This document shows positions 5,297 through 63,132 of a DNA stretch of 64,000 bases, in pieces. Each line of letters starts with the position of its first letter. Position 1 is the first letter of the stretch. Both the position numbers and the translations under genes were made by a program. Source of the stretch: a virus. Taxonomy: Duplodnaviria; Heunggongvirae; Uroviricota; Caudoviricetes. The notes beneath the pieces were generated by a model. That model ran no database searches. It was not told where the DNA came from and saw nothing but the letters and a program-made list of their open reading frames with translations. The stretch is taken from the IMG/VR virus record IMGVR_UViG_3300037119_002976, positions 1 through 64,000 of that record, one strand, 5' to 3'.

Positions 5297-5303
5297 CTCT
5301 CAT

Positions 5304-5409: not shown

Positions 5410-5481
5410 CGCGGGCGACTCGGTCGGAGCAGAGGGTGCGCTCATAACGCACAGAACCGGGTTCGACTCCCGGGCCCGCTA
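5410..5481 (+). tRNA. tRNA-Met (anticodon CAT; could also be lysidine Ile)
   Basis: Anticodon arm GTGCG-CTCATAA-CGCAC is a perfect 5 bp stem with U33 and A37. T-arm CCGGG-TTCGACT-CCCGG; acceptor 6/7 paired with a 1-72 C.T mismatch; no CCA. Confidence 0.6.
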
Positions 5482-5485
5482 CTCG

Positions 5486-10330: not shown

Positions 10331-10484
10331 CTTCTCAGGACTGAGAAGACGGCCCGCTCCGGGGTTGGTTCGCCGGGGCCGCAAAGATTCCGAGGAGTCT
10401 TTGCACGCTGGCCAAGTCAGCTTCTCACCCACACGCCGAGCGGACCGTCCACCTACCAGTCCGGCTCGCGTGAGTGAGTTCTTA

Positions 10485-10557
10485 TGCCCGCCCCGGGACT
10501 CGAACCCGGAAACCTCCGTTTCTGAGACGGAGTGCTATGCCGATTCGCTAGACGGGC
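10485..10557 (-). tRNA. tRNA, candidate anticodon CAG (Leu-type anticodon on a class-I, short-variable-arm scaffold)
   Basis: Reverse complement gives acceptor GCCCGTC/GGCGGGC, T-arm CCGGG-TTCGAGT-CCCGG and anticodon arm TCCGT-CTCAGAA-ACGGA with U33 and A37. The variable region is only 5 nt; no CCA. Confidence 0.55.
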
Positions 10558-10559
10558 AA

Positions 10560-10629
10560 TGGGGCCCCGAGGAATCGAACCTCGTCCTGTCGGGTTACAG
10601 CCGAGCATGCGCCACTACACCAGGACCCC
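10560..10629 (-). tRNA. tRNA, candidate anticodon GUA (Tyr-type anticodon on a class-I scaffold)
   Basis: Reverse complement gives acceptor GGGGTCC/GGGCCCC, T-arm CGAGG-TTCGATT-CCTCG and anticodon loop CTGTAAC, with a 4 bp stem plus a C.C pair. It lies 2 nt from the neighbouring tRNA. Confidence 0.5.
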
Positions 10630-10830
10630 GTGGGGGCTAGGGAAGGCGCAGATACAACCGGCGAACCACGGCGCGAGCGTATCGAGGAATGGGCGCCGGC
10701 GCAACCGTGGAAGCCTCCCGAAGGAGTGTCCCGTCCGCAGTTAGCGTCGGCGCCCGCATGCAGTCTAATCCGACCCGAGGGTGTATATTTACCTCTGTCC
10801 CGTTCGTAATCGAACCGATGGAGGTTTGTG

Positions 10831-11799
10831 ATGGGTTGGATCGTTCTCACGGTGCTCGCCGTGATCCTGTTCTGGGTTGGAATCGGTATCTGGGTCTACG
10901 CACGCAAGCGCGATGCGGTTCTCGAGGCCGAGGGCCGCACATCTTCAGATCTCATGCCATCCGGGCTCGGGCTCTACGCCGCGATCGGGGTCGGCATCTG
11001 TTGGGTCTTCATGTCCTTCTTCTTCATGGTCCACACGGTGGGCCAGCGGGAGGTGGCGATCGTCTACAACTTCTCCGGCACGATCGCGGGGAAGAAGGAT
11101 CCCGGAGTCGTGACCACGTTCCCCTGGCAGCACGTTCGCAAGGAGAACGTCGGCATCCAGCACACCGAGTACGACTTTGGCGCGAACAACTCCGCTGTCT
11201 CCAAGGACCAGCAGAAGATCTTCGCGAAGCTGGCGGTCAACTACCAGATCGACTCCGTGAACGTCGTCGACCTGTACGAGCGGGTCGGGCCCTCGTGGAA
11301 GGACATCATCATCGAGGCCAGGGTGCCGCAGGTGTTCAAGGAAGTCACTGCGACGTTCCCGACGCCGAAGATCACCGAGGAGCGGGCCGAGCTGCGCGAG
11401 CAGACTCGCACGCGCCTCATCGCCGAGCTCAACCAGTACGACATCAAGGTGGTCGACGTCTTCATCACGAACCTCGGCTTCTCCGATCAGTACTCGCAGG
11501 CGATCGAAGAGAAGCAGCAGCAGGTTCAGGATGCGCAGCGTGCCGAGGCCAAGGTCAAGCAGGTCGAGGCCGAAGCTCGCCAGAAGGTCGCGCAGGCCGA
11601 GGGTGAGGCGAAGTCGAACGTCGCTCGCGCTCGTGGTGACGCTTCTGCCAACCGTCTGCGTCAGCGCTCGCTGACCCCACGCCTGATCCAGTGGGAGGCA
11701 ATCCAGAAGTTGAACCCCAATGTCCAGATCATCGTCTGCCCGCCGCAGTCGGTCTGTATCCCGAACTCGGCTGTCGTGCCGAACCCAGGAGGCAACTGA
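10831..11799 (+). CDS. SPFH / band-7 (stomatin/prohibitin/HflK-C family) membrane protein (322 aa)
   Basis: RBS GGAGG 6 nt before ATG 10831; N-terminal TM helix; SPFH core REVAIVYNFSGTIAGKKDPGVVTTFPW...; long C-terminal coiled coil (EEKQQQVQDAQRAEAKVKQVEAEARQK). Confidence 0.75.
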   Translation: MGWIVLTVLAVILFWVGIGIWVYARKRDAVLEAEGRTSSDLMPSGLGLYAAIGVGICWVFMSFFFMVHTVGQREVAIVYNFSGTIAGKKDPGVVTTFPWQHVRKENVGIQHTEYDFGANNSAVSKDQQKIFAKLAVNYQIDSVNVVDLYERVGPSWKDIIIEARVPQVFKEVTATFPTPKITEERAELREQTRTRLIAELNQYDIKVVDVFITNLGFSDQYSQAIEEKQQQVQDAQRAEAKVKQVEAEARQKVAQAEGEAKSNVARARGDASANRLRQRSLTPRLIQWEAIQKLNPNVQIIVCPPQSVCIPNSAVVPNPGGN

Positions 11800-19469: not shown

Positions 19470-19697
19470 GTGCCATGCGGGTGCGGTAAGAACGTCCCCC
19501 AACTCTCGGCTGAAGAAGTGGCCGCTCGTGCGGAGCGTCAGCAGATCGCCAGAGAGCAGCAGCTTGCGATGCGTGCGGAGCGCATCGCGGCGCGGGAGAA
19601 GAAGCGTGAGGCATCGGAGCAGCTCCGGCGCGAACGCCGTGAACGTCTGCTCCAGGTTCGTGCGGAGCGTGCAGCCGTGAACAGGCAGCAGCCCTAG
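19470..19697 (+). CDS. hypothetical Arg/Glu-rich protein (75 aa)
   Basis: GTG 19470; coiled-coil composition; TAG 19695-19697 overlaps the portal GTG. Confidence 0.4.
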   Translation: MPCGCGKNVPQLSAEEVAARAERQQIAREQQLAMRAERIAAREKKREASEQLRRERRERLLQVRAERAAVNRQQP

Positions 19698-21598
19698 TGG
19701 CAGTACCTCTTCGTCTCATCCCGCAGCGCCCACGCAGCGTCACCGCGTCCGCGGTGAAGATGACGCCGAAGACGACCTCGACGTTCCGCACGCGCAAGGG
19801 GCAGGCCTGGCAGAAGAAAGCGTTCCTCTTCTCCAAGATCATCCCCGAGCTCAACTACGCCTCGCGCTTCTACGCGAAGATGCTCACGAGGCTGCGCATC
19901 TACCCCGCCTTCCGCAATCCCTCGGACGAGACGACGCCGATCACCGAGGGCCCGCCGGTCGATCTTCTCGATCGCATCCAGGACCCCGGCGGGGGTCGCT
20001 CCGGGCTCCTCTCGTCGTACGGCCGGCTCATGTTCATCATCGGCGAGGGCTACCTCTTCGGTCGTGACCTCGACAAGCCGACCGAGCGCTGGGCCTTCGT
20101 CAACACCGAGGAGATCTCCTTCGACGGCAAGGCGATCCTGTGGACGCCGACGTCGTCGGCCGAGCCCATCCGCTTCTCACCGTCGCAGGCCGAGGCGTAC
20201 AGGATGTGGAATCCGGATCCCGAGTTCTCCGGCGAGGCCGAGTCTCCGATGCGGGCGATCATCGAGATCGCGCAGGAGCTCGACATCCTCACCAAGGCCG
20301 TCGCCTCGACGGCCGTCTCGCGCATGGTCAACGGCATCCTCAAGGTTCCGGCCGAGCTGTCCTTCGGCTCCGAGGAGCCCGGTATCGACGAAGACCCCGA
20401 GGCGAACCCGTTCCTGGCCGACTGGATCGAGCACATCATCGGGATCATCGAGAACGCCGGTTCCCCCGAAGCAGGGGCACCGTTCCTGGCCGAGGGAGCT
20501 CTGGAGTATCTCGCCGGCCTCGAGTGGATGAAGACCCATGATCCGGCGACGGACTACATGGAGCAGGCGATGCGCCGGGAGGCGATCGACCGTGCCGCGA
20601 TGGGCATGGACCTTCCACCGGAGATCCTCAAGGGCATGGCCGAGGCGAACCACTGGGGCGCTCGCCAGATCATGCACGACACCTGGCGCTCCCACGGCGC
20701 CGTCGTCGCCGAGCAGTTCTGCGACGACCTCGCCGATGCGTACCTGCGCCCCGCCCTGCGGGATGCGGGCTTCGATCGCTGGCGCGAAGTGGTAGTCGCC
20801 TACGACGACTCGAACGTCGTTGTTCCTCCCGACCGTACCGACGATGCCGACAAGGCTCACGATCGCGGTCAGGTGAACGATCCGGGCTATCGCACGATGA
20901 AGGGCATCCCGGAGTCGATGGCTCCCTCCGAAGAGGAGATGCGGATCAATCTCGCCATCCAGCTGCACGAGCCAGCCCTTCTGAAGGGCACGCGCTTCGA
21001 GATCGAGGAGCCGGAGCCCGCAGCGTTGCCGCCCGGCCCCGTCCCGACGACCGACGCGCCGCAGGATGCCGAGGAAGGGCCGCCAGCGCCGGGACCAGCC
21101 GGAACGTCTCGTCAGGAGTCTCGCGCCTCGATCGTCCAGGTCAACGGCGCCGCTTCCCTCGCGCTCATTCGTTGCCGCGAAGTCGCCGGCGCGAAGATCC
21201 GTCAGGGGATCCGCACCAAGTCACGCGGGGCGGTAGAGCTGGGGATGATCGACGGGATTCCGAACGCCGACGTCGCCTGCACTCTCGGCGAGGACCGGAT
21301 CAGGGCTCTTGGTCTTCCGCAGCCACTCGAGCTCGTTAAGTCGGGCACCGACGGCTTCTGCTCGCTGCTTCGTTCCTGGGACTTCGACGACCCTGGCGCA
21401 CGGGTGCTCGCGGAAATGCTCCTTGTGTTCGCAGCGAAGTCGCTGTATGACAAGGAAGTCCCGAAGCTGCCAGCTGGGTTCCTCGCCCAGGTGGAACGCC
21501 TGAAGGAACTGACCGAGGAGAAGATCGTGAGTCAGAACAACGATTCCCTGGCGATCATGGAGGAGATGCTCGGTGGCGTCAGGATCAAGGGAGGCTGA
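19697..21598 (+). CDS. portal protein (633 aa)
   Basis: Size, position downstream of terminase and sequence character match portal proteins, with an acidic C-terminal tail. GTG 19697 overlaps the upstream TAG; ATG 19760 is an alternative start. Confidence 0.75.
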   Translation: MAVPLRLIPQRPRSVTASAVKMTPKTTSTFRTRKGQAWQKKAFLFSKIIPELNYASRFYAKMLTRLRIYPAFRNPSDETTPITEGPPVDLLDRIQDPGGGRSGLLSSYGRLMFIIGEGYLFGRDLDKPTERWAFVNTEEISFDGKAILWTPTSSAEPIRFSPSQAEAYRMWNPDPEFSGEAESPMRAIIEIAQELDILTKAVASTAVSRMVNGILKVPAELSFGSEEPGIDEDPEANPFLADWIEHIIGIIENAGSPEAGAPFLAEGALEYLAGLEWMKTHDPATDYMEQAMRREAIDRAAMGMDLPPEILKGMAEANHWGARQIMHDTWRSHGAVVAEQFCDDLADAYLRPALRDAGFDRWREVVVAYDDSNVVVPPDRTDDADKAHDRGQVNDPGYRTMKGIPESMAPSEEEMRINLAIQLHEPALLKGTRFEIEEPEPAALPPGPVPTTDAPQDAEEGPPAPGPAGTSRQESRASIVQVNGAASLALIRCREVAGAKIRQGIRTKSRGAVELGMIDGIPNADVACTLGEDRIRALGLPQPLELVKSGTDGFCSLLRSWDFDDPGARVLAEMLLVFAAKSLYDKEVPKLPAGFLAQVERLKELTEEKIVSQNNDSLAIMEEMLGGVRIKGG

Positions 21599-25091: not shown

Positions 25092-26903
25092 ATGGCAAAG
25101 CAGACCGAGGTGGAGTCCTTGTTCCCGGCGCTTCCGGAGAGTCTCTCCGAGTTGAGCGACGACGAGCTGGGCACGCTTCTTCAGGAGCACGAGGTCGCAG
25201 CCGACCTCATCGACAAGGAAGACGAAGACTTCACGAGCGGCTTCGCAGGTGACGAGCTTCTCGAGCAGTACGAGGTCGGCGTCACGCAGATCGAGACCAT
25301 CCGTGCGGAGCAGGAGCTTCGCGTGGAGGCTCAGCAGGAGTACCTCGCCAAGAAGGCCGAACTCGCCGAGCGCCGCAAGGCCCACGCCGAGGCCGAGGGT
25401 GAGGGAGACGACGAGGGCGACGGTGACGAGGGCGACGGCGAAGAGGCCGCACCCGAGGAGGCCGCTGCCGAGCTCGCCGCAGAGGACGACAAGGAAGAGG
25501 CAGAGGTCGAGGAGGACGAGGTAGTCGAGGAGGAGGAGACGAAGGAAGTTGTCGTCGCCGCCGCGGCCGCTCCGCCCGCACCGCGCAAGCCGCTTCGTCG
25601 GCCACCCTCCCCGTCCAGGGAGCGCATGGCGTCCGTCACGTCGCAGGGCGCTCCGCTCGTCGCAGCCGCAGGCCTCCAGGAGGTTCGCGGTGGCACGGTG
25701 ATGGACCGCAAGTCGCTGGCCCAGGCCTACAAGGTCACGGCCACGCGGCGCGGTAAGCCGTCCAAGAGCAACTCCGGTGTCGAGGAGCGCATTCTCGTCG
25801 CCGCAGCGCACTTCCCGTTCCCCGAGGATCGCATCCTCGTCGCGGGCGACTACGAGGAGAACGCGGCCAAGATCGCCGCGAAGATCCCGAACTACATCCC
25901 GGGCCTGAACGGTCGGCTGCGCGGAGAGGCACTGGTCGCTTCCGGCGGTCTGTGCGCTCCGTTGGAGCCGATCTACACGATGCCGAACTTCGCATCGACG
26001 GCTCGCCCGGTGCGCGACGCCCTTCCGTCCTTCCAGGCGGATCGCGGCGGCGTCAACGTCCCGGCCGTCACCTACATCGCCGACATCGACACGGCGATCA
26101 CGGTGATCGAAGAGGCCGACGACGCCCTCGGAGGCACGTTCGCCACGAAGTCCTGTCAGGACATGGACTGCCCGGCGTACACCGAGGTGCCGGTGACCAT
26201 CATCAGCCACTGCCGTGAGTACGGGAACCTGAACGCGATGGCGTGGCCGGAGAAGATCGCGCACGAGAACGATCTCACGATGGCGGCCCACGCCCGGACG
26301 AGCGAGACGTACCTGCTCGACCGGATCAAGGCCCTGTCCCTCAACGTGACCCAGGCGGCGGTCGGATCGCAGATGAACGCGTTCGGCTCCCTGGTGCACG
26401 CGATCACGAAGGCAACGGCGGGAATCCGCTTCCGGCTCCGCGCAGACGGCGGTACGCGCTTCCGGGCTCTGTTCCCGATCTGGATCGGCGACATGCTCGC
26501 CGCCGACAACGCCCTCATGAACTTCGACCGCTACCAGGCACAGGCGCAGCTCACGTCGGCACTCGAGCGGTACGGGGTCTCGGTCTCGTACTACCTCGAT
26601 CCCGTCACGGGCGGCACCTCGCAGGGCTTCGCGGCCGAGACGGCGTCGGCGCTGGACGACTTCCCGGACGACGTGCAGTACGCGCTCTACGTCGAGGGGT
26701 CGTTCATCCATGTCGACTCGGGTTCGCTCGAGCTCGGACTCGTCCGTGACTCGACGCTCAACTCGACGAACGACTTCCAGCTGTTCGGGGAGTCCTTCGA
26801 GAACGTGGCACGGCTCGGGCCGGAGCAGGGAGCCCTCTGGGTCACCCAGGACGTCTGCCCGAACGGTGTCTTCCCGGCCCTCGGGACGGCACTGACCTGC
26901 TGA
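25092..26903 (+). CDS. major capsid protein with N-terminal acidic scaffold-like (delta) domain (603 aa)
   Basis: RBS AGGAG 8 nt before ATG 25092. About 200 aa of acidic coiled-coil (EAEGEGDDEGDGDEGDGEE...), then a roughly 380 aa HK97-like capsid body. It is the largest structural gene after the portal. Confidence 0.8.
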   Translation: MAKQTEVESLFPALPESLSELSDDELGTLLQEHEVAADLIDKEDEDFTSGFAGDELLEQYEVGVTQIETIRAEQELRVEAQQEYLAKKAELAERRKAHAEAEGEGDDEGDGDEGDGEEAAPEEAAAELAAEDDKEEAEVEEDEVVEEEETKEVVVAAAAAPPAPRKPLRRPPSPSRERMASVTSQGAPLVAAAGLQEVRGGTVMDRKSLAQAYKVTATRRGKPSKSNSGVEERILVAAAHFPFPEDRILVAGDYEENAAKIAAKIPNYIPGLNGRLRGEALVASGGLCAPLEPIYTMPNFASTARPVRDALPSFQADRGGVNVPAVTYIADIDTAITVIEEADDALGGTFATKSCQDMDCPAYTEVPVTIISHCREYGNLNAMAWPEKIAHENDLTMAAHARTSETYLLDRIKALSLNVTQAAVGSQMNAFGSLVHAITKATAGIRFRLRADGGTRFRALFPIWIGDMLAADNALMNFDRYQAQAQLTSALERYGVSVSYYLDPVTGGTSQGFAAETASALDDFPDDVQYALYVEGSFIHVDSGSLELGLVRDSTLNSTNDFQLFGESFENVARLGPEQGALWVTQDVCPNGVFPALGTALTC

Positions 26904-42693: not shown

Positions 42694-42971
42694 CCGAGCT
42701 TCGCGAGACTGATGGAGTCCCGATCTGGCTCCCGAATCACCAGGAGCCGCATCTGGTGAAGAGAGAGCGCCGGGCCTACGACTCAGAGGACGACGGCGGT
42801 CAGGCGAAGGCGCTGATCGAGACGGGCCTCTTCGAGACCGGGTCAGGTTTCGTGTTCCGCTGCCCGCTGTGTGGGCGTCAGGAGCGAAACGACCAGAGGA
42901 TGGAGCCCATGTGCACGGGGCCGGGTTGGACGGACGATCACCCGCCCGAAGTAATGGTCTGCGTGGCGTGA
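42690..42971 (+). CDS. hypothetical Cys-containing protein (93 aa)
   Basis: ATGA overlap start; CPLCG...C zinc-ribbon-like. Confidence 0.4.
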   Translation: MTELRETDGVPIWLPNHQEPHLVKRERRAYDSEDDGGQAKALIETGLFETGSGFVFRCPLCGRQERNDQRMEPMCTGPGWTDDHPPEVMVCVA

Positions 42972-44095
42972 GCTACACGCTCCACGTCGTCTCCCTCCCG
43001 CACACGACGCTCACCGAGAAAGACGCGCAGTGCGCGTACTCGATGAAGGTGCTCAAGTTCGTGCCGATGATGCAGGACCAGGGCTGCAAGGTCATCCTGT
43101 ACGGGCCCGACCAGATCGACTGCTCTCCCGACGAGCACGTCGTCGTCACGACCGAGGCTGATCGCCTGCGCTGGGGATACGGAGGGCCCACGGGCTACGA
43201 CACCACGAAGGCGTTCGAGTGGGACGGCTCCCAGCCGTACTGGTTCGAGTCCTGTCAGCGAACGATCGACGCGATGCGCGAGCGCATGCCGAAGGATCGG
43301 CGCGGGCACTACATCTGCCTCGCGACGTCCACGCAGGCGGCCATCCCGGATGCGGTCGCAGGGCCGAGCTGGAACGCGCCGATCACGCTCGAGTGGGGCG
43401 TCGGCTACATCGGGGTCGACATGCGCTCCTGGCATGCCTACGAGTCCTACGCCTGGATGCACCAGGTCTACGGTATCCGCAACATCGGCGACGGCCGCGC
43501 CTTCGACCAGGTGATCCCGAACTTCTTCGACGTCTCGCAGTTCTCGGTCGCCAAGAACCCGAGCGCCGACTACGTCCTCTTCATCGGGCGCTGCATCATG
43601 CGCAAGGGGCCGCACGTGGCCGCCGAGATCGCGAAGCGCATCGGTCTGCCGCTCGTGGTCGCCGGGCCGGGCGCTGTCGAGGCTGGCGGCGTCCTGCACA
43701 CACAGGAGGGCGTGCCGATCACGGGCGAGGTCGACTACGTCGGATCCGTCGGGTTCGCCGAGCGCAACGAGCTCATGTCGAACGCCGCCGCGACGATCGT
43801 GCCCACGCTCTACATCGAGCCCTTCGGTGGCGTCGCTGTCGAGGCGATGCTCGCCGGCAGTCCGGTGATCGCATCGGACTGGGGCTCGTTCACCGAGATC
43901 GTCACGCCAGACGTGGGCGCACGCTTCCGCACGCCGCTCCAGGGCGCCGCGGCCTTCGAGGAGGTTCAGAAGTTGAAGCGCCCGGCTATCCGCAAGGCAG
44001 CGAAGGCACGGTTCTCACAGGAGGCCGTCGGGCCGATGTTCATGCGCTGGTTCGACCAGCTGGACCTGCTCTGGGAGAAGGGATGGGATCAGTGA
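42968..44095 (+). CDS. glycosyltransferase family 4 (GT-B, group 1) (375 aa)
   Basis: GTGA overlap start; C-terminal Rossmann domain with FIGRCIMRKGPHVAAEI and EPFGGVAVEAMLAGSPVIASDWG (E-x7-E GT4 signature). Confidence 0.8.
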   Translation: MSYTLHVVSLPHTTLTEKDAQCAYSMKVLKFVPMMQDQGCKVILYGPDQIDCSPDEHVVVTTEADRLRWGYGGPTGYDTTKAFEWDGSQPYWFESCQRTIDAMRERMPKDRRGHYICLATSTQAAIPDAVAGPSWNAPITLEWGVGYIGVDMRSWHAYESYAWMHQVYGIRNIGDGRAFDQVIPNFFDVSQFSVAKNPSADYVLFIGRCIMRKGPHVAAEIAKRIGLPLVVAGPGAVEAGGVLHTQEGVPITGEVDYVGSVGFAERNELMSNAAATIVPTLYIEPFGGVAVEAMLAGSPVIASDWGSFTEIVTPDVGARFRTPLQGAAAFEEVQKLKRPAIRKAAKARFSQEAVGPMFMRWFDQLDLLWEKGWDQ

Positions 44096-47517: not shown

Positions 47518-47775
47518 ATGACGCTCAACCAGTTCCTCGATGCTGCCTACGCCCTGCTGGTCGATGAGTACCGGCGTCTCGGCTCGGGCCTGGTCGAGGC
47601 GCTTGATCGGACCCGCGAGTACGCCGCGGGGTATCGCATCGAACCGCTTACCGCCAGCGGTAACGAGGGGGCAGCCACGCCAGTCCGCAAGCAGCCTGAT
47701 CTCACTCCCGAAGAGCTCGAGAACGAGAGGATGCTGGCCGCGTTCGAGTCGATGATGGGTGATGTGAAGTTCTGA
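47518..47775 (+). CDS. tail assembly chaperone T-like segment (85 aa as stand-alone ORF); probably expressed as a -1 frameshift fusion with 47006
   Basis: Its frame is -1 relative to 47006 and is open continuously from 47419, so it overlaps the last 24 codons of the G-like ORF. A GGGAAAA motif sits at 47459-47465. The stop overlaps the tape measure ATG. Confidence 0.45.
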   Translation: MTLNQFLDAAYALLVDEYRRLGSGLVEALDRTREYAAGYRIEPLTASGNEGAATPVRKQPDLTPEELENERMLAAFESMMGDVKF

Positions 47776-50700
47776 TGTCCGAATTCGTCGCTGGCGCATT
47801 CGTCGATGTCAAGCCAGACGCCAAGGGCTTTCGTGATGACCTGAAGAAGAAGGTCAACGCCTCGATCAAGAGTGCGGGGACGTTCAAGGTCCCGATCGAG
47901 TTCGACGTCAAGTCCTTCAAGAAGAAGCTCCAGACCGAGGCACGAGGTGCGAAGGTCAGGATCCCGATCGAGGTCGGAGGCAACGTCGCTGATCTTCGGA
48001 AGGCTCTCAACGCCAAGATCAGGTCGGCCACGGAGGGGATCAAGATCAAGGTCCCTGTGGAATTCCAGCAGGCCGGTGCGGGGGCTCGTGGTGGACCCGG
48101 CAGCGGGACTCCGGGCGGGGGTGGCACGGGGCGGGCTGGTACATCCAACACGGCCAAGCAGACCGCGCTGGAGAAGGAGCGGGCCAAGGTCCAAAAGACC
48201 CTGATCGACCTCGACACTCGCGCCTCGGTGACGCAGGACCTGCTCTCCTCCTCCACGGACAAGAACATCACGGTCGAGGAGAAGGCGCAGCGCTTGCGTG
48301 ACGCTCGTGTGGCTGCCAGCGCCTCCGTGCGGCAAGCGACAACTCAGCTCGCTGCGTCCTCCGCCATTCTCACCGCTGAGCAGCGCAAGGGTCTGGAGAC
48401 AGCGAAGGCCGAAGCAGTTGCCGCTCGTGCAACCGTAATTCAGAAGCAGAAGGACCTCGCCACTTCGGTCGCTCAGAGCAAGGCCGTCAGCACGGCCACG
48501 AAGGCCAGGGCAGAAGCCACGGTTGCGTTGCAGGTCGAGGTGAGGAGCCTCACCAGTCTTAACGCTCTGCACGCGATCGAGAATGATCTTCTCGCGACAG
48601 AGGCAGCTCTCAAGAGGGCCACCACCAGGGCCCGCGAGCTCGGCCTCACCGCCGAAGTCGCAGAGAACCAAGCCCTCTTGCGCAAGATCGAGCTGCAGAA
48701 GGCGGCGATCATCACCCAGCGCAACGAGATCAAGGGTGAGGGCAAGCGCCTGACCCAGCAGAAGACTGGACTCCGCGGAGCCGCGGCCACCATCCTTTCC
48801 CTGCTAGGCCTTCGTGGCGCGACGCTGGCCGCCAGCGGCGCGTTCCTCGGTGGTGCGGTCGCAGCTGCGACGTTCACAAAAAGCCTCGCGGCGTTCGCGG
48901 GCTTCGAGCGCGAGCTCAACACCTTCCAGGCGATCACAGGAGCCTCGGCCGAGGAGATGGAGCACGCCTCCGATGTTGCAAAGCAGCTCGGCGAGGACAT
49001 CCATCTGCCGTCTGTCAGCGCTGCTGATGCCGCGTCGGCAATGACCGAACTCGCCCGCGCCGGGCTTGACGTGACCAACTCGCTGAACGGTGCTCGCGGT
49101 GTGCTTGAGTTGGCGGCCGCCGCACAGATCGAGAACGCCGAGGCGGCGACTCTCGTGGCGAGCGGCCTGAACGCTTTCCAGCTCGAGGGAGAGGACGCCG
49201 TCCACGTCGCCGACCTCCTGGCCAATGCGGCCAATGCTGCCCAGGGCTCGATCTCGGAGATGGGCGCCGCGTTGCAGCAGGCGGCCGCGATCGCCCACCA
49301 GGTGGGCATCTCACTCGATGACACGGTGGGGATCCTCACGATCTTCGCTCAGCGCGGCCTGCGCGGATCGGACGCTGGTACGTCGTTCCGTACCGCGATG
49401 GCGCGGCTCATTGCCCCCACGAAGAAGGCGGGTGAAGTCATCGACCTGCTCGGCCTGCAGATCCGTGATGCCGAGGGCAACATCCGGCCCGAGGTCTTCG
49501 CCGACTTCGGTAAGGCCACCAAGGATCTCCCGCCAGCGCTGCGTGACATGGCCGCCGAGATCATCGCGGGCCAAGATTCCATCCGTGCCTTTGCGATCGG
49601 CGCCAGTGCGGGTGAGCGCGGCCTTGAGCGCGTCCGGCTCCAGATGCAGCAGGAGGGCGCTGCGTCTCGTGTCGCTTCTGCTCGCACCAAGGGACTGGCC
49701 GGGGCCTTTAATGCTCTCGGATCGAACGTCGAGACGCTGGGCATCACTCTCGGTGGTTTTGCGGCAGGGCCAGTACAGACCACTACGCAGTCCCTGACCG
49801 ACATGGTCGGTGTATTGAACAAGCTCCTGGCGGGTGACTTCAGTGGGTTTGCAGAGGGCCTGGAATCAGGATTCGACAGGTCGGTCGAGGGAGTCGACGC
49901 CAAGATCAAGGGCATCGACTCACTCGTGAGGGGTATCGGCACGGGCAACTTCGACAAGATCAAGGAGGGCCTGTCAGGGATCTTCCAGGCCGTGCCGAAG
50001 GACCCAACGAAGGTCGAGCTCCTCCTGGAGGCTCTGGAGAAGTTCCAGACCCTGCGCCTGCAGGCATTCGACGTCGGGATCGACATCGGGCCGATCACGC
50101 AGCAGCTGAAGTTCCTCCAGGGTGAGCTGAAGAAGGCGAAGATCGACGCCGGTCTCCTGATCCCGGTCACTCCGCTCGAGAAAGCTCTGTTCCCGCTCAA
50201 GCAGGCCTTGGCCACAGCGAAGGAGATCAGGGCTGAAGCTCTCAGGGCGACCGGTGGGAGGCCCACCGACGCGACCAGGGATCTCGACAGGATCATTTCT
50301 CAGGTCAACGCTCGCATCAAGGTCACGACCCAGGGCTTCAAGGCCAACGTCAAGGAAGCTCTCTCGGGCAAGGATCTCGCGAGGGGCTTCCATCAGACGT
50401 TCCAGCTGATCGCCGAGGAACCCAAGCTCGCCACTCCGGAGACGCTTGAGGGGATCGACAAGCTGATCCGCAAGATCGGGAAGGTCCCGGTTGGGAGCGC
50501 CCCAGCGTCGCTGGGTAAGAAGATCGTCAAGTCCCTGCAGCTCGCGATCAACGCGGCTGTCGACGCAGACGACCCCGAGCTCGCTGCCGCTCTTCAGGAG
50601 AAGGCTAAGAAGATCGCAGCTCTCTTCGGAATCTCGCTCGCGGAGGCCTTCAAGAGCATCAAGGTCCCCTTGACGTCTGACGACGTTGCGGAGGCAGTGC

Positions 50701-51989
50701 TTCCCGAGCAAATTGCTGGGCTCCGTGCCGAGGCGTTCGGGACTGTCACTGAGCAGATCGCTGCGAAGGAAGCAGAGCTGGCGGGATTGACCGAGGGCCT
50801 CAAAGGTGTACGCAAGGGGACGCAGGACGAGGCGGACATCCTCCAAGACATCATCGGCGTCCAGGGCGAGATCAAGTCTCTCAAGGAGGACGCCGGCTCT
50901 GGCGCAGACGCGATCCTTGACGCCATTTCCGGCAAGGAGCAGCGGCTCCTGAACCAGCGCTCGCTCGCGGAACTGACGGAGACGTTCGACGATGACCTCA
51001 AGGCCGAGCGTCAGCTGCGTGCTTTCTACGTCAAGCAGATCGAGATCATCCGCAACACCATCAAGGACAAGGAGAAGCGCAACGACGCTATCGCCGACAT
51101 TAAGCAGAAGCTGTTCGAGCTCGACCTCGACATCGTCGGGACGATCAGCGACAAGGCCGACAAGATCTTCGACGATGCTGCAGAGGCAGCCGCGGAGACC
51201 GTCTCGCTCCAGGACGATCTCAACGTCGCGAATCGCAAAGTCCGCTTCTGGGAGCGTCAGGTGAAGATCGTCGAGGGTCTCGTCAAGAAGCGGAAGGCCA
51301 CCGTGGCCCAACTGCAGGCGGCCCAGGACAAGCTCGATCAGGCCGAGGAGGACGCGAAGCAGGCTCGCCGGGACAGGCGTCAGCAGCAGCGCGAGAACCG
51401 GCAGGAGCGCTTCGACCTCCAGATCCAGATCGCGCAGTCGAACGGGAACATCAAGGCCGAGATCCGCTTCCGCGAGGCTCAGATCAAGAACACCCAGGCG
51501 CTCATTCGCCAGACCCGCAAGGGCTCACTGCAGCGGCTGCGCTTGATCGCCCAGCTTCGCCAGGAGCAGTCGGAGCTGCGCGATCTCAAGAAGGAGAAGG
51601 AGGCAGCCAACGACGCCCAGGCTGCGCTGTTCTTCGAGTTCCTGCAGCGTCAGCAGGGGTTCGCAGCCAACCTGCTCGGCAACCTCATCCCCGGATTCGC
51701 TGCCCGCGGGCTCGTGGGCACAACTTCCGCTCCCGGCTCCACCGCGGCGGGGGCAGGGGACTTCTTCGGAGGCCCGCCCAACGCAGCTGAGATCAATACG
51801 AAGGCCTCCTCGAACGCTGCCATTGCTTCCTCGACGGAGCGCAACGTCCGCCCCGTCCAGGTGGACACCACGAACACCATCCTTCGCCAGATCCTCTCGG
51901 AGCTGCGCGGGCGTCGCACCAACCCCCCGGAGATCGGGCGTAACAAGGCTGAAATGAGCGCCTCCTTCGACACACTCGGTGGTGTGTAG
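47775..51989 (+). CDS. tail tape measure protein (1404 aa)
   Basis: Size; Ala/Leu/Gln/Glu-rich coiled-coil; Gly-rich segment GGPGSGTPGGGGTG; hydrophobic segments in the middle; classic position after the chaperones. Confidence 0.85.
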   Translation: MSEFVAGAFVDVKPDAKGFRDDLKKKVNASIKSAGTFKVPIEFDVKSFKKKLQTEARGAKVRIPIEVGGNVADLRKALNAKIRSATEGIKIKVPVEFQQAGAGARGGPGSGTPGGGGTGRAGTSNTAKQTALEKERAKVQKTLIDLDTRASVTQDLLSSSTDKNITVEEKAQRLRDARVAASASVRQATTQLAASSAILTAEQRKGLETAKAEAVAARATVIQKQKDLATSVAQSKAVSTATKARAEATVALQVEVRSLTSLNALHAIENDLLATEAALKRATTRARELGLTAEVAENQALLRKIELQKAAIITQRNEIKGEGKRLTQQKTGLRGAAATILSLLGLRGATLAASGAFLGGAVAAATFTKSLAAFAGFERELNTFQAITGASAEEMEHASDVAKQLGEDIHLPSVSAADAASAMTELARAGLDVTNSLNGARGVLELAAAAQIENAEAATLVASGLNAFQLEGEDAVHVADLLANAANAAQGSISEMGAALQQAAAIAHQVGISLDDTVGILTIFAQRGLRGSDAGTSFRTAMARLIAPTKKAGEVIDLLGLQIRDAEGNIRPEVFADFGKATKDLPPALRDMAAEIIAGQDSIRAFAIGASAGERGLERVRLQMQQEGAASRVASARTKGLAGAFNALGSNVETLGITLGGFAAGPVQTTTQSLTDMVGVLNKLLAGDFSGFAEGLESGFDRSVEGVDAKIKGIDSLVRGIGTGNFDKIKEGLSGIFQAVPKDPTKVELLLEALEKFQTLRLQAFDVGIDIGPITQQLKFLQGELKKAKIDAGLLIPVTPLEKALFPLKQALATAKEIRAEALRATGGRPTDATRDLDRIISQVNARIKVTTQGFKANVKEALSGKDLARGFHQTFQLIAEEPKLATPETLEGIDKLIRKIGKVPVGSAPASLGKKIVKSLQLAINAAVDADDPELAAALQEKAKKIAALFGISLAEAFKSIKVPLTSDDVAEAVLPEQIAGLRAEAFGTVTEQIAAKEAELAGLTEGLKGVRKGTQDEADILQDIIGVQGEIKSLKEDAGSGADAILDAISGKEQRLLNQRSLAELTETFDDDLKAERQLRAFYVKQIEIIRNTIKDKEKRNDAIADIKQKLFELDLDIVGTISDKADKIFDDAAEAAAETVSLQDDLNVANRKVRFWERQVKIVEGLVKKRKATVAQLQAAQDKLDQAEEDAKQARRDRRQQQRENRQERFDLQIQIAQSNGNIKAEIRFREAQIKNTQALIRQTRKGSLQRLRLIAQLRQEQSELRDLKKEKEAANDAQAALFFEFLQRQQGFAANLLGNLIPGFAARGLVGTTSAPGSTAAGAGDFFGGPPNAAEINTKASSNAAIASSTERNVRPVQVDTTNTILRQILSELRGRRTNPPEIGRNKAEMSASFDTLGGV

Positions 51990-58626: not shown

Positions 58627-59187
58627 TCAGCGGCCACGCTTGATCCCGAAGTCACGCCCCTTGATCTTGGCCATGCGTCCGTCGGGGTGATGGAAGACGA
58701 TGCCCTCCCAATCGGTCTCCGAGAGGAAGTCTTTGATGCCGTCGAACGACCGATCGAGATTGCCGACGCCCTCCGCGAAGTCGTGGCGGACGAGCTCGTG
58801 CTGGTCGAACTTCTCCGGGTTCCCTTGCACCTTCGGCCCAACGAGCTCGTACGTGCCCTCGTCGAGCGGCTCGGTGCGGCGAGCGATCGCGTCTCGGTAC
58901 CACTTGTCCTCGGGCCCGTAGCCGACGGCGACCCAGCCGATCACCTTGCCGGTGTTCATGTCGTCGTCCACCTGCTGGAAGCCCTCCGGCGGCGCCTTGC
59001 CACCACGCAGCTCGAGCCGCTTGAAGAGGTTCCCCTCGACGTCGACGTACACGGCCGTCCCGTCGTACTTGCGGATCGCGTTGCCCTCGCCCACGAAGAC
59101 CCACTCGCAGCCAGGAGTCGGGATCGGCAGAACGCGGCTGCGGTCGCCGTCCCAGTCTCTCTCGAAGATGGTCGGAATCTTCTTCAT
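58627..59187 (-). CDS. minimal nucleotidyltransferase of the ligase superfamily (RNA/DNA-ligase-like, KxDG motif I) (186 aa)
   Basis: Motif I AIRKYDGTAVYVD (K-x-D-G); downstream acidic and basic motifs (EGIVFHHPDGRMAKIKGRD) consistent with ligase motifs IV-V; small size. Confidence 0.5.
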   Translation of the reverse strand: MKKIPTIFERDWDGDRSRVLPIPTPGCEWVFVGEGNAIRKYDGTAVYVDVEGNLFKRLELRGGKAPPEGFQQVDDDMNTGKVIGWVAVGYGPEDKWYRDAIARRTEPLDEGTYELVGPKVQGNPEKFDQHELVRHDFAEGVGNLDRSFDGIKDFLSETDWEGIVFHHPDGRMAKIKGRDFGIKRGR

Positions 59188-59701: not shown

Positions 59702-59926
59702 TCAAATCAGGGAGTCCTGTCCAGGAGATATCCCACTTTTCAACTTCCGGATGCAGTTGTCACAGGCGTACACCTCGATCGTTTCACGCAGGGAGATGTC
59801 GGAGCCGCCGCGGCGGGTAGAGCTCATGTGCGCTTTGCGCTCCCAGCCCTGGACGCGACGCCAGGTGTAGCGCGACGTCGGATCGACTGGCGTTCCGCAG
59901 TAGGTGCAGGGGGCGGTCATGTCCAT
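59702..59926 (-). CDS. zinc-ribbon protein (74 aa)
   Basis: CTYCG...CDNC four-Cys arrangement. Confidence 0.4.
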   Translation of the reverse strand: MDMTAPCTYCGTPVDPTSRYTWRRVQGWERKAHMSSTRRGGSDISLRETIEVYACDNCIRKLKSGISPGQDSLI

Positions 59927-60147
59927 CGAAACCCCTTTCGTCGGAAGAGTGGACGGGCAGCGCCGGGCACCTTCTTCATCTCCAGCACGCCCTTCTCGAC
60001 GAGACGATGGACGTGGTAGTGAACGCTCCCCTTCGACGAGAGCCCCAGGAAGAGACCGATCTGGTCGTAGCTCGGGCTCGTCCAGTACTCCGTCCAGTAC
60101 GAGTCGATGAATGCGAGGAGCTCGGCTTCTGTGCGCGTCCCGATCAC
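59917..60147 (-). CDS. winged-HTH DNA-binding protein, LexA-N-terminal-domain-like (76 aa)
   Basis: SPSYDQIGLFLGLSSKGSVHYHVHRLVEKGVL matches the LexA DNA-binding domain consensus; no protease domain. Confidence 0.45.
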   Translation of the reverse strand: MIGTRTEAELLAFIDSYWTEYWTSPSYDQIGLFLGLSSKGSVHYHVHRLVEKGVLEMKKVPGAARPLFRRKGFRWT

Positions 60148-60317
60148 GACTTCGTCGCGAACTCTTCGAGGCTTGGCTGCGCGGCCTTGGTGTCCTGGGT
60201 TGTGATCTTATTCGAGAGGTTCTTCAGGTCCTGCACCAGCTGCGGATCGTCGGCGAAGATACGCGCGACCAGCAGCACGCAGTACACGACGATCTGCTGC
60301 CTCCAGGTGACGTTCAT
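60144..60317 (-). CDS. small membrane protein (57 aa)
   Basis: RBS GGGAGGAGA before the reverse-strand ATG 60317; TM helix QQIVVYCVLLVARIF. Confidence 0.35.
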   Translation of the reverse strand: MNVTWRQQIVVYCVLLVARIFADDPQLVQDLKNLSNKITTQDTKAAQPSLEEFATKS

Positions 60318-60763
60318 GGGGTCTCCTCCCAGGTGATGATGTGGAACCGGTCGTCGAGGATTCCAGCGATGAAGGGCCCCACGATGTCGTAGGAGAGCTG
60401 GCCGTTTCCACAGCCCGGCCGCGGCACGACGCAGATTTCCCAGTCCTCGCGATCGGCCGCCTCCATCGCCTCCTTGCACGATCGCTCGATCAGAGCGAGG
60501 TCGGCGGGCTGGTGCCAGTGATGCTTCACCGGGAAGGTGATCAGGTCCTTCATCCCGACCCAGTTCTTGAAGCAGAAGACGTGGTTGCCGTTCGCGATGA
60601 TCGAAGCTCCCACGGCCAGCGGCAGACCCGGCCAGAGGTCGGCGGCCTCCTTCGCACAGCCCGCGCCCATGACGGCACGCCCGTCCTTGCGCACAAAGCC
60701 GTTCGTCGTGATCGCGATCGCGCTCGCTGAGTACTCGAAGAGATCTCCGTAGACGTCGATCAT
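60314..60763 (-). CDS. macro-domain protein (TARG1/DarG-like ADP-ribose hydrolase fold) (149 aa)
   Basis: N-terminus IDVYGDLFEYSASAIAITTNGFVRKDGRAVMGAGCAKEAADLWP follows the GDLF...MGAGIA consensus of OARD1/TARG1/DarG macro domains. Confidence 0.6.
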   Translation of the reverse strand: MIDVYGDLFEYSASAIAITTNGFVRKDGRAVMGAGCAKEAADLWPGLPLAVGASIIANGNHVFCFKNWVGMKDLITFPVKHHWHQPADLALIERSCKEAMEAADREDWEICVVPRPGCGNGQLSYDIVGPFIAGILDDRFHIITWEETP

Positions 60764-61113
60764 GCGGGCCTCCCCTCGCAGTAGAGCTCGATCGGGATGC
60801 CATGCTTCTCGGCGAGGTCGACCATCATCGACGTGCCACTGGATCGCCCATCCCAGAAGGCGATACAGAGATCAGCGCCGATGACCGCCATGCGCTCGTT
60901 GCGGATGAAGCCAGCGCGCTTGCCGTAGTAGTCCCAGTCGGCCGGATGCTCCTCGACCAGGAGACCGAGCTTGGCGGCCTCTTCTCCCGCGATGCGATCG
61001 GCCCCCTTCGCCTTCCCGTGGACGATGACCGTGTCCGTAGGCAGGTCGAAGAGACGGTTCGCGATCGCCTCGCGATCCGTCCAGTCTCGGGATCCGCAGA
61101 CGATGACTCTCAC
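60760..61113 (-). CDS. SLOG-superfamily (DUF2493/YspA-like) Rossmann protein (117 aa)
   Basis: RVIVCGSRDWTD...VIVHGKAKGADRIAGEEAAKLG...GFIRNERM matches the DUF2493 pattern. 4 nt overlap with the macro-domain gene. Confidence 0.5.
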   Translation of the reverse strand: MRVIVCGSRDWTDREAIANRLFDLPTDTVIVHGKAKGADRIAGEEAAKLGLLVEEHPADWDYYGKRAGFIRNERMAVIGADLCIAFWDGRSSGTSMMVDLAEKHGIPIELYCEGRPA

Positions 61114-62494: not shown

Positions 62495-62794
62495 CTACTG
62501 CCAGGTGATCGTCGTCTGAGTCTCGACCTTCGGGGACAGCGGCTGCCAGTAGCGCTCTGCGACGGCGACGTAACTCGCGGTCGGACTGGCGTCGTCGCCG
62601 AGTGAGCTCAGGGCACTCTTGACGTCTGAGGCGGTGACGTTCTTGACCTTGCTCCACGGACCGTCCTTGGCCCGCTGCTCGAGGATGACGTACTCGCGCT
62701 CTGACGTTCCCTTGTCCTTGTCCGACTCCGGCTCCTGCTCCTGCGGCTCGGTCGGCTCTGTCGGCGCGAGCTGGTCCTGCTGGATGGTGCTCAT
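62495..62794 (-). CDS. acidic protein (99 aa)
   Basis: RBS AAGGAG 8 nt before the reverse-strand ATG 62794; very acidic N-terminus (PTEPTEPQEQEPESD). Confidence 0.45.
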   Translation of the reverse strand: MSTIQQDQLAPTEPTEPQEQEPESDKDKGTSEREYVILEQRAKDGPWSKVKNVTASDVKSALSSLGDDASPTASYVAVAERYWQPLSPKVETQTTITWQ

Positions 62795-63132
62795 GATGGG
62801 ACACTCCTTGGTCGTCGGGTCGGCGAGTAGTCGCCGAGGCCGTAGTGGGCAGCGAGGACGCTGATCACGATTCCTCGCACAACTGTGCGCTGGTCGATGG
62901 CGGCGGTCATGCGCAGCTTCAGGTGCAGCGACTCGTCCACCCTGAGCTTGAACTGCGGTGCCATCTTTCGGTAGGGCTTCCCGGACAACTCCCACTGAAG
63001 CCCGAAGTACTCGGCGAGGATCGACCCGGCGACATCGTTCAGAGTCACGTTCTCTTCGGACGCCTCCTGGTCAAGGGCTGCTCGCAGGTCATCTGGGAGA
63101 ACCTCGTTCAGGATTAGAGCTCCTCGCGCCAT
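62791..63132 (-). CDS. putative ribbon-helix-helix-type DNA-binding protein (113 aa)
   Basis: Two repeats of a beta-alpha-alpha-like pattern (VTLNDVAGSILAEYFG; LHLKLRMTAAIDQRTVVRGIVISVLAAHYG). Confidence 0.45.
   Translation of the reverse strand: MARGALILNEVLPDDLRAALDQEASEENVTLNDVAGSILAEYFGLQWELSGKPYRKMAPQFKLRVDESLHLKLRMTAAIDQRTVVRGIVISVLAAHYGLGDYSPTRRPRSVPS

Follow-up and report, generated by a model that had tools for sequence, protein, structure and literature searches.

A DarG2-type macrodomain gene beside a YAcAr-family SLOG gene in an uncultured actinobacteriophage

The 64,000-nucleotide stretch of DNA analyzed here (the window) comes from an uncultured actinobacteriophage and carries on its minus strand a gene whose predicted product, as judged by profile and structure comparisons, is an orphan, stand-alone macrodomain of the DarG2 type, the closest relatives by both measures being the macrodomains of DarG antitoxins. 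The gene forms an accessory cassette that some close relatives have and others lack, and it directly follows a gene for a SLOG protein of the YAcAr family, a Rossmannoid protein without a characterized close relative. The best explanation of the locus, to which we give an even chance, is that the macrodomain protein would remove ADP-ribose from DNA in the manner of DarG2 and of the phage protein AdfM, with the SLOG protein as a partner in the same pathway. The association of Macro and SLOG domains in phages has been known since 2022, and the locus extends that known class rather than representing a new kind of system.

Arrangement of the locus and the facultative cassette

The features of the locus are listed in Table 1. 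Both open reading frames described in an earlier note on this DNA are present at the coordinates that it gave, but they lie on the minus strand and the note had their order reversed; because the stop codon of the SLOG gene overlaps the start codon of the macrodomain gene, the SLOG gene is the upstream member and the macrodomain gene the downstream one. The translation of the macrodomain ORF begins with MIDVYGDLFEYS and ends with VMGAGCAKEAAD. The coding nature of both ORFs is clear (GC3 of 0.87 and 0.83, as compared with an overall GC content of 64.5%), and the database contains 1444 homologues of the macrodomain protein and 365 of the SLOG protein.

Table 1. Positions in the window of the genes, junction elements, and catalytic codons discussed in the text
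Feature	Coordinates	Strand	Remarks
YAcAr-family SLOG gene, upstream member of the pair	60760..61113	minus	117 aa, GTG start, protein start MRVIVCGSRDW
Predicted orphan DarG2-type (AdfM-like) macrodomain gene, downstream member	60314..60763	minus	149 aa, ATG start
ATGA overlap of SLOG stop (TGA) and macrodomain start (ATG), 4 nt	60760..60763	minus	Read from sequence
Shine-Dalgarno-like GGGGAGG, 5 nt before the macrodomain ATG, within the SLOG 3' end	60769..60775	minus	Read from sequence
57-aa ORF with hydrophobic segment; downstream cassette boundary, conserved flank	60144..60317	minus	No family match
Macrodomain gene body, absent in L092, facultative cassette	60331..60756	minus	blastn against L092
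Asn21 codon (ITTN motif), equivalent to TaqDarG N22 and PhiKZ AdfM N23	60701..60703	minus	Alignments; invariant in 30 homologues and in fusions
Lys80 codon (FPVKHHW motif), equivalent to DarG K80, TARG1 K84, and AdfM K78	60524..60526	minus	Alignments; invariant in homologues and in fusions

The 4-nucleotide overlap that had been described between the two genes is present, but its direction is the opposite, since it is not the macrodomain stop that takes part in it. It is no evidence of a specific coupling because every junction nearby carries one: a GTGA overlap joins the upstream ORF to the SLOG gene (61110–61113), the macrodomain stop shares an ATGA overlap with the start of the 57-residue ORF (60314–60317), the latter overlaps the HTH gene by 4 nucleotides (60144–60147), and a further overlap of the same length lies at 62791–62794 in the same gene array. 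The overlaps, and with them any translational coupling, are a trait of the whole array and not of this pair in particular. A scan of the region from 56.8 to 64 kb for promoters and terminators gave counts at chance level and defined no operon boundaries.

A syntenic relative, L092, retains the SLOG gene and cleanly lacks the macrodomain gene. At 76–79% nucleotide identity, blastn aligns positions 61519 to 60757 of the window with positions 2305–3071 of L092 (76%) and positions 60330 to 59601 with positions 3053–3804 (79%), and in L092 nothing separates the SLOG stop from the orthologue of the 57-residue ORF. An orthologue of this ORF is also present in a second syntenic relative, L001. A megablast search with the 3.2-kb region gave no match in 50,697 phage records, and no sequenced phage among them is a close relative. 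The phage, whose contig is ∼100 kb long, encodes a terminase, a portal protein, and a major head protein, together with a putative tape-measure ORF recognized by its length only; the relatives of its capsid protein are all from actinobacteriophages.

Identity and catalytic residues of the macrodomain protein

The macrodomain protein belongs to phrog_335 (E = 1.5e-18). When its profile (A1) was compared with the PDB, the matches included the DarG proteins of Mycobacterium tuberculosis (6.8e-16) and T. aquaticus (7.9e-14), the DarTG of T. africanus (1.1e-11), and TARG1 (6.8e-8). The AF2 model (pLDDT 95.3) matched dozens of macrodomains with a Foldseek probability of 1.0; the top four matches in the PDB were DarG macrodomains with TM scores of 0.81, followed by TARG1 at 0.73–0.75, and DarG was the only match in PADLOC and NCBIfam. 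The assignment is made from profile and structure and not from Pfam because the score with the Pfam Macro family (PF01661), 18.1 bits over residues 72–128 only, is below the gathering threshold of 22, which is passed by several close homologues and by the fusion protein P0241. The protein is not a full-length DarG: it has 149 residues and no C-terminal DarT-binding domain, and with the DarG equivalog model NF048014 it scores 45.2 bits, against a cutoff of 250, over model positions 6–138 of 338. The neighboring ORFs tested included no member of a DarT family, and neither did the precomputed Pfam annotation of L001, the syntenic relative.

The two Gly-rich ADP-ribose-binding loops, VMGAGCA and PGCGNGQL, are invariant in an alignment of 30 homologues, and Asn21 and Lys80 align with the corresponding residues of DarG; the offset in numbering of the PDB constructs for these two positions was verified on the printed alignments. 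The catalytic role of the Asn is taken from the study of AdfM (PMC13309987). The second loop, GCGNGQL, resembles the GxGNGGL of DarG and differs from the GCGLDRL of TARG1, so that the position of TARG1 Asp125 is occupied by Gly121, as it is by Gly in DarG. The test that had been set for the macrodomain assignment, alignment of the Gly-rich loops and of the catalytic residues, is therefore passed in the DarG sense. TARG1/OARD1 (PDB 4J5Q/R/S) has a macrodomain of the same class and its Lys84 position is kept, but its similarity to the window protein is below that of DarG, and membership in the TARG1 group was rejected because Asp125 is missing, which leaves the Lys84-Asp125 dyad with the Lys only.

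The DarG2 proteins of DarTG2 from T. aquaticus and M. tuberculosis (PDB 5M31/5M3E/5M3I and 7OMU) share with the window protein the ADP-ribose loops, N22, and K80, at an overall identity of 21–25%. The window protein differs from them in being encoded by a phage, in lacking the C-terminal DarT-binding domain, and in having no DarT gene among the neighbors examined. Its divergence from DarG and the rank of TARG1 as the next-best relative in structure and sequence would be compatible with a reversal of protein or RNA ADP-ribosylation, either by TARG1-like removal from Glu/Asp or in response to RNA-targeting ADP-ribosyltransferase defenses, as would an RNA ligase gene 1.1 kb downstream of the macrodomain gene (phrog_14301, 2e-55). 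We regard this as improbable because of the replacement of Asp125 by Gly, the action on DNA of the nearest characterized relatives, DarG and AdfM (PMC13309987), and the dominance of DNA polymerase, SSB, and helicase genes in the contexts of the family. The same RNA ligase, which is part of the same gene array, and the annotation of phrog_335 as "phosphatase" could instead suggest an ADP-ribose-1''-phosphate phosphatase that disposes of an RNA repair by-product in concert with the ligase, an activity that would be the source of this label. Such a role is very improbable, given that neither the neighbors tested nor the Pfam annotation of L001 included a 2'-phosphotransferase (Tpt1/KptA) and that L092 is without the macrodomain gene while blastn still aligns the sequence downstream of it. 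To our knowledge, the DarG/TARG1 class is also not that of the known Appr1p phosphatases.

Among characterized phage proteins, AdfM (gp104 of PhiKZ), the macrodomain anti-DarT factor of chimalliviruses, removes the ADP-ribose added by DarT2 from DNA and neutralizes DarTG2 (Cell Rep 2026, PMC13309987). The window protein is 32% identical to it over 140 residues (BLASTP 6e-13; hhalign 98.8%), and both are stand-alone phage macrodomains of ∼150–160 residues in phrog_335 that have the catalytic Asn and Lys and no DarT-binding domain. AdfM is, however, much nearer to bacterial DarG, with scores of 133–138 bits against the DarG models as compared with 40–45 for the window protein; it is imported into the phage nucleus, and it has no SLOG neighbor within the 35 kb examined, whereas the window protein has one. 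The window protein is a member of a distinct clade, in which an insertion separates the Asn from the first Gly loop (NGFVRKDGRAVMG in place of NVVGVMG in AdfM). Because of this insertion and the far lower DarG-model scores, its substrate could differ from that of AdfM. The suggestion that a phage macrodomain protein neutralizes DarT thus holds for the homologue AdfM with respect to DarTG2 (PMC13309987) and extends to the window protein as a prediction from homology.

A functional parallel is offered by AdfN, a NADAR protein of T4-like phages that acts as an orphan antitoxin against DarTG1 by removing guanine-linked ADP-ribose (PMC11825919). There too the hydrolase domain of the antitoxin is present in the phage as an orphan copy, and some polypeptides combine NADAR domains with members of the macrodomain family and SLOG domains, but the fold is unrelated and the specificity is for ADP-ribose linked to guanine. 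ICP1 AdfB was rejected as a relative since it mimics the DarT-binding domain of DarG and not the macrodomain, and a preprint on Thoeris in Migulavirinae was set aside because the macrodomain described there is that of the host ThsA and not of the phage. The family of the window protein comprises >1400 clusters at 90% identity, is present in 127 phage records, and is almost exclusively viral: a scan of 185,579 species genomes found 23 loci, all of them in metagenome-assembled genomes and none in the genome of an isolate.

The SLOG protein and its association with macrodomains

As with the macrodomain, the domain assignment made earlier for the SLOG protein is upheld, here by a score of 55.8 bits with Pfam YAcAr (PF10686, formerly DUF2493; gathering threshold 28.2), and the protein has the Rossmannoid fold of that family. 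Comparison of folds does not discriminate between DprA, YpsA, ThsA, and LOG. Matches to DprA in the PDB (E values of 0.2–0.5) are not significant, and there is no match to Pfam DNA_processg_A (PF02481), a family that is matched by some of the more distant YAcAr neighbors of macrodomains; with only 117 residues, the protein is without the extra domains of other DprA proteins, and its residues were mapped onto the ssDNA pocket of DprA by a weak alignment. Phosphoribohydrolases of the LOG type have the motif PGGxGTxxE, which includes the catalytic Glu. In the SLOG family considered here the motif is FWDGxSxGTxxM, and LOG-type catalysis was rejected because the Glu is replaced by the invariant Met97. 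Both proteins of the pair are acidic (pI of 5.0 and 5.3), which does not suggest strong nonspecific DNA binding. A search of the literature on DUF2493, YAcAr, or SLOG domains in connection with anti-defense brought up no experiments on a YAcAr protein from a phage.

In the nearest relatives, the macrodomain and SLOG genes are adjacent with 4-nucleotide overlaps and occur in both orders. The two genes are also carried by cultivable phages such as Klebsiella phage KpCHEMY26 and Pylas. At least 19 proteins contain both domains, 14 with the macrodomain first and five with the SLOG domain first; they share ≤50% identity with one another, and both halves keep every invariant residue of the window proteins. 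Multidomain proteins that join Macro, NADAR, and YpsA-type SLOG domains were also found. A SLOG gene is nevertheless present within 3 kb of only ∼8% of macrodomain loci (7 of 85 viral loci and 1 of 23 in metagenome-assembled genomes), and closely related SLOG genes usually have no macrodomain neighbor, as in five such contigs. The link between the two is real but not obligatory, and the low co-occurrence, together with the five contigs, indicates that a good part of the biology of each gene is independent of the other. The functional pair that the earlier note envisaged is accordingly retained as a link, seen in adjacency and in fusions of both orders, and not as an obligate two-gene unit, in view of the SLOG gene without a macrodomain in L092 and the many macrodomain loci without SLOG.

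Alternatively, the two proteins might be neighbors without a functional relationship, the SLOG protein being a DprA-like core recombination or ssDNA protein next to which an independent anti-defense cassette was inserted by chance. In keeping with this, the SLOG gene persists alone in L092 and in the five related contigs, SLOG proteins are present in 1752 phage records as compared with 127 for the macrodomain, they are annotated as "DprA-like" in mycobacteriophages, HelB of ICP1 is a fusion of a YAcAr domain with an SF1B helicase, and the 4-nucleotide overlaps are generic in the array. A chance association of this kind is unlikely; it does not readily account for 19 divergent fusions with both domain orders, for the position of the macrodomain on either side of the SLOG protein in different lineages, for the Macro, NADAR, and SLOG multidomain proteins, or for the retention in the fusion halves of all of the invariant residues.

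Neighborhoods and fusions of Macro, NADAR, SLOG, and DUF4326 domains in phages were described computationally as ADP-ribose-processing systems by Iyer, Burroughs, Anantharaman, and Aravind in 2022 (PMC9503650), and a survey of jumbo phages (PMC7824862) is also a source for such Macro/SLOG neighborhoods. The locus conforms to their module, in which tailed phages have a SLOG protein of the YpsA-like clade (YAcAr) beside a Macro domain or fused to it; neither paper describes the clade of the window protein or the polymorphism of the cassette. Both predict that the substrates are soluble ADP-ribose signals. On that reading the pair would destroy or sequester signals or toxins such as the gcADPR of Thoeris, His-ADPR, or ADPr-1''-phosphate, the SLOG protein binding the signal or cleaving the adenine N-glycosidic bond and the macrodomain processing the distal ribose, a division of labor proposed by Iyer et al. 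(PMC9503650) for phage combinations of SLOG, Macro, and NADAR, and type II Thoeris effectors do sense His-ADPR through a macro domain. We consider a role in soluble signaling quite unlikely in the present case. The macrodomain is nearest to the DNA-specific macrodomains of DarG and keeps their catalytic pair, the macrodomain of Thoeris is absent from the top 50 structural matches, the position of the LOG Glu is an invariant Met in the SLOG family, and the Macro and NADAR families have since been shown, in the experiments on AdfM and AdfN, to act on ADP-ribosylated DNA (PMC13309987, PMC11825919).

The genomic contexts of the family likewise point to DNA replication modules rather than to soluble signals. 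The macrodomain gene directly follows a UDG-PolA polymerase gene in 12 of 90 loci, and likewise in Listeria phage LIS04; macrodomain-SLOG fusions adjoin genes for SSB and a RecQ-like helicase; and one macrodomain is fused to the finger and HHH domains of Pol III α.

Proposed function and its implications

We infer that the substrate is ADP-ribosylated DNA and that the defense opposed is DarTG2-like. The macrodomain protein would be a DarG2-type ADP-ribosyl glycohydrolase that stands alone as an orphan antitoxin, as AdfM does; its gene lies in a leftward arm of nonstructural genes and is presumably expressed early. ADP-ribose would be bound by the two Gly-rich loops, and Lys80 and Asn21 would hydrolyze the bond between ADP-ribose and base, most likely at N3 of thymidine in phage ssDNA that had been modified by a DarT2-type toxin of the host; its removal would restore replication. 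The SLOG protein, a conserved small Rossmannoid protein presumed to bind nucleotides, would act in the same pathway, most likely as a partner that recognizes a nucleic acid or nucleotide by binding ssDNA or the modified nucleotide in a pocket like that of DprA; alternatively, it may be a second hydrolase. Because it persists where the macrodomain is missing, it probably also has a role that is independent of the macrodomain.

A more specific, and unlikely, version of this scheme makes the SLOG protein a dedicated accessory of phage anti-DarT hydrolases, in which a conserved pocket formed by R9, R71, N72, and G93 would grip a base of ssDNA, possibly the ADP-ribosylated thymidine, and present it to the Macro or NADAR domain, or would itself cleave a third type of linkage between ADP-ribose and base. 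An accessory of this type would explain the fusions to DarG-type macrodomains in both orders, the polyproteins with Macro, NADAR, and SLOG domains, and the fusions to helicases and nucleases found elsewhere.

If the macrodomain protein works like AdfM, counter-defense by orphan DarG2-type proteins would extend beyond the jumbo phages of Pseudomonas and Erwinia that form a nucleus, to ordinary siphovirus-like actinobacteriophages and to the whole of this large, predominantly viral family. The finding is relevant to these phages because DarTG2 occurs in actinobacteria, as exemplified by the DarG of M. tuberculosis (PDB 5M3I). The SLOG protein is the more useful point, since YAcAr genes, which are functionally uncharacterized, are carried by ∼1750 sequenced phages, the well-studied cluster A mycobacteriophages among them. 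Unfused pairs and fusions, each in both orders, and a near-isogenic relative in which the macrodomain gene alone is missing give a handle on whether the role of YAcAr proteins concerns DNA or soluble signals. Should the SLOG protein prove to be an accessory of the anti-DarT hydrolases, the phage Macro/NADAR/SLOG network would be a repair kit for the de-ADP-ribosylation of DNA and not one for the degradation of signals.

The phage and the two-gene junction

The macro gene and the SLOG gene, a member of the YAcAr family (PF10686, formerly DUF2493), sit among small non-structural genes in a leftward arm that extends from ~64 kb down to 57 kb and also contains a DNA methyltransferase, a HicB/RHH-like protein, a LexA-like HTH protein, two HNH endonucleases, and an RNA ligase, for which no Tpt1/KptA-like partner was present among the ORFs tested. 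The tailed-phage structural genes, the relatives of the capsid protein (all from actinobacteriophages, at ~35% identity), and an identical macro protein on metagenomic contigs as long as 100.9 kb identify the source as an actinobacteriophage, uncultured and about 100 kb in size. There was no nucleotide match to 50,697 phage records.

Features of the phage sequence, in order of position
Feature	Position	Strand	Details
Four tRNA genes	5224-5482; 10484-10629	plus; minus	Ile-GAT, Met-CAT, Leu-CAG, Tyr-GTA
Large terminase	7111-8898	plus	
Lipoprotein-like gene	10828-11799		phrog_200
Portal	19697-21598	plus	
MuF-like head protein		plus	
Major head protein	25092-26903	plus	603 aa
Glycosyltransferase	42869-44095	plus	408 aa; phrog_3408, 3e-55
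Putative tape measure	47775-51989	plus	1404-aa ORF; named from length alone
RNA ligase	58627-59187	minus	186 aa; phrog_14301, 2e-55; weak Pfam RLIG1
Zinc-ribbon-looking protein	59702-59926	minus	74 aa; two CxxC pairs
LexA-type winged-helix protein	59917-60147	minus	76 aa; PF01726, 2.6e-8
57-aa ORF	60144-60317	minus	hydrophobic stretch, QQIVVYCVLLVARIF; directly after macro
Macro gene	60763 to 60314	minus	149 aa; ATG start; MIDVYGDLFEYS...VMGAGCAKEAAD...
SLOG gene	61113 to 60760	minus	117 aa; GTG start; MRVIVCGSRDW...
HicB-like/FitA-like ribbon-helix-helix protein	62791-63132	minus	113 aa; weak matches

Only residues ~180-600 of the major head protein match known actinobacteriophage capsids, and therefore the protein has an N-terminal extension of ~180 residues. 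The glycosyltransferase gene lies amid the structural genes, and the interval between the terminase and portal genes, which holds tRNA genes and the lipoprotein-like gene, is unusually wide at ~11 kb. The fold of the HicB/FitA-like protein is that of an antitoxin, and no toxin is evident beside it; it may serve as a further orphan antitoxin or as a regulator. The LexA-type and two-CxxC genes are kept downstream of SLOG in relatives, macro-less ones included; the 57-aa ORF, which has no family match, is kept in two syntenic loci, L001 and L092.

Both ORFs of the pair are clearly protein-coding, with third-position GC of 0.83 for SLOG and 0.87 for macro (64.5% GC for the window overall) and, in the metagenome database, 365 and 1444 homologue clusters, respectively. 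The 4-nt overlap described in the earlier note is present (ATGA, 60760-60763), but the gene order is the reverse of that proposed, SLOG being the upstream gene whose stop overlaps the macro start. A GGGGAGG ribosome-binding site precedes the macro ATG by 5 nt. Overlaps of 4 nt also occur between the upstream ORF and SLOG (GTGA), macro and the 57-aa ORF (GGGAGGAGACCCCATGA), the 57-aa ORF and the HTH gene, and the HicB-like gene and the next gene. Therefore the overlap is a sign of a tightly packed operon rather than of a special bond between SLOG and macro, and translational coupling is not specific to the pair.

The macro protein and its relatives

Profile, structure, and motif comparisons bear out the assignment of both domains. 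The macro protein scores 18.1 bits with the Pfam Macro model, below the threshold of 22, but every stronger comparison agrees. A profile of 30 homologues matches DarG from M. tuberculosis (6.8e-16) and T. aquaticus (7.9e-14) and a T. africanus DarTG fusion (1.1e-11), with TARG1 (6.8e-8) next. The best four PDB matches of its AlphaFold model (pLDDT 95.3) are DarG macrodomains (TM 0.81), followed by TARG1 (0.73-0.75). DarG is the only model matched in PADLOC (1e-10) and NCBIfam (7e-12), with coverage of the macro part only. As judged from printed alignments and a 10-residue offset of the crystallized construct, N21 (ITTN) and K80 (FPVKHHW) align with the catalytic N22 and K80 of T. aquaticus DarG (PMC13309987); both are invariant across the 30 homologues. 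The second loop, GCGNGQL, resembles the GxGNGGL of DarG, whereas the position of TARG1 Asp125 (in GCGLDRL) is occupied by Gly. These comparisons identify the protein as DarG-type and not TARG1-type, and the macro assignment survives, in the DarG sense, the alignment check set as a refutation in the earlier note. Unlike DarG, it lacks a C-terminal DarT-binding domain.

The stand-alone phage macrodomain AdfM (PhiKZ gp104), described in 2026, strips DarT2-made ADP-ribose from DNA and shields chimalliviruses from DarTG2 (PMC13309987). AdfM and the window macro share phrog_335, 32% identity over 140 residues (E=6e-13), and a profile-profile probability of 98.8%. However, AdfM is nearer to bacterial DarG (133-138 bits on DarG models versus 40-45), and in the clade of the window macro an insertion that AdfM lacks separates the Asn from the first Gly loop. 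By sequence, the macro protein is a homologue of this validated anti-DarT2 enzyme in a separate clade.

Only 23 loci of the subfamily occur in 185,579 species-representative genomes, all on MAG contigs from very different phyla, archaeal bins included. This distribution points to an essentially viral family, with phage contigs probably present in the bins. Database labels in the family are "phosphatase," "membrane protein," or "ADP ribose binding protein."

The YAcAr protein and its association with macro genes

In the YAcAr family an invariant Met takes the place of the catalytic Glu in the LOG motif (PGGxGTxxE), which makes LOG-like chemistry unlikely. The nearest protein by motifs (GSR, GxAxGxDxxA, RN, SG[T/S]) is DprA, without statistical significance. 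The pocket of H. pylori DprA holds an ssDNA thymine through R52, R143, N144, and G164 (PMC3950713), and in a weak profile alignment the invariant R71, N72, and G93 fall on the last three; a similar pocket in SLOG is putative, and a lead only. YAcAr genes are named inconsistently ("GTP binding protein," "GTP-binding domain" (phrog_289), "DprA-like DNA processing chain A," "hypothetical protein"), as in Klebsiella phage KpCHEMY26 (L123, 631-951) and mycobacteriophage records. Literature searches found no experimental study of any phage YAcAr protein, and no experimental basis was found for the labels of either family.

Phage neighborhoods and fusions of Macro, NADAR, SLOG, and DUF4326 have been described by Iyer, Burroughs, Anantharaman, and Aravind in 2022 (PMC9503650), and the association is thus already known as a computational prediction. 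The closest relatives of the macro all have a YAcAr neighbor with a 4-nt overlap, in the order SLOG-macro in the window and L001 and macro-SLOG in L002 and L003-L005. The L002 SLOG (P0130) is ~83% identical to that of the window and its macro (P0005) only 56%, as though the same SLOG had acquired a different macro allele on its opposite flank. In cultured KpCHEMY26, an N4-like phage, a YAcAr gene precedes the macro gene at a distance of 2.5 kb. In viral locus L082, Macro and YAcAr are fused in one 270-aa protein that exceeds both Pfam thresholds; searches with this fusion and then with a five-fusion profile against 1.84 billion representatives gave 19 two-domain proteins (14 macro-SLOG and 5 SLOG-macro). 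When the two window proteins are concatenated, the fusions align with them colinearly at 38-44% identity, all key residues being invariant. Macro is also fused to YpsA-type SLOGs and, in metagenomic proteins, to NADAR plus SLOG (P0433, 551 aa: Macro, a weakly matched DarT1-type NADAR, and YpsA-SLOG) and within DUF4326-Macro-NADAR-YpsA-SLOG (P0362, 634 aa). Both chains carry both known kinds of anti-DarT hydrolase domain.

SLOG lies within 3 kb of macro in only 7 of 85 viral loci and 1 of 23 MAG loci. Macro is absent from five long contigs whose SLOGs are close relatives (62-78% identity) and from L092, whose flanks on both sides are syntenic with the window (76-79% nucleotide identity) and which lacks precisely the macro gene; there the SLOG stop directly adjoins the 57-aa ORF orthologue. 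The pair proposed in the earlier note thus holds as a recurrent, selected association, found in both orders and in the 19 fusions, but not as an obligatory unit: each gene can do without the other, SLOG being the conserved gene and macro a facultative cassette. Near-repeat junctions, GGGGAGGCCCGCATGATCGAC and GGGAGGAGACCCCATGAACGTC, flank the macro gene (60331-60756), and L092 has a single junction, GGAAGGAGCCCCATGATCGTCACC (3053-3071), where the small protein starts MIVTW, an apparent blend of the macro start (MIDVY) with that of the 57-aa ORF (MNVTW). Together these suggest gain or loss of the cassette, in either direction, by recombination at RBS-ATGA microhomology.

The likely substrate

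For such phage combinations, Iyer et al. proposed degradation of soluble ADP-ribose-derived signals (PMC9503650). That role is the less likely one for macro and SLOG here. Orphan NADAR and macro proteins, the T4-like phage NADAR AdfN (PMC11825919) and the macro AdfM (PMC13309987), have since been shown to de-ADP-ribosylate DNA, and the contexts point the same way. In 12 of 90 loci, and also in Listeria phage LIS04, macro comes directly after a UDG-PolA DNA polymerase; SSB and RecQ-like helicase genes adjoin the fusions; one macro (P0435, metagenomic, 680 aa) shares its chain with Pol III alpha finger and HHH domains; and in ICP1 HelB, YAcAr is fused to an SF1B helicase. The favored reading is that the macro would act on ADP-ribosylated ssDNA, with SLOG as a partner in the same pathway. 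The macro protein joins a kind of protein now known experimentally through AdfM, its activity here being predicted, and the natural variants found here make the function of YAcAr SLOG proteins testable.
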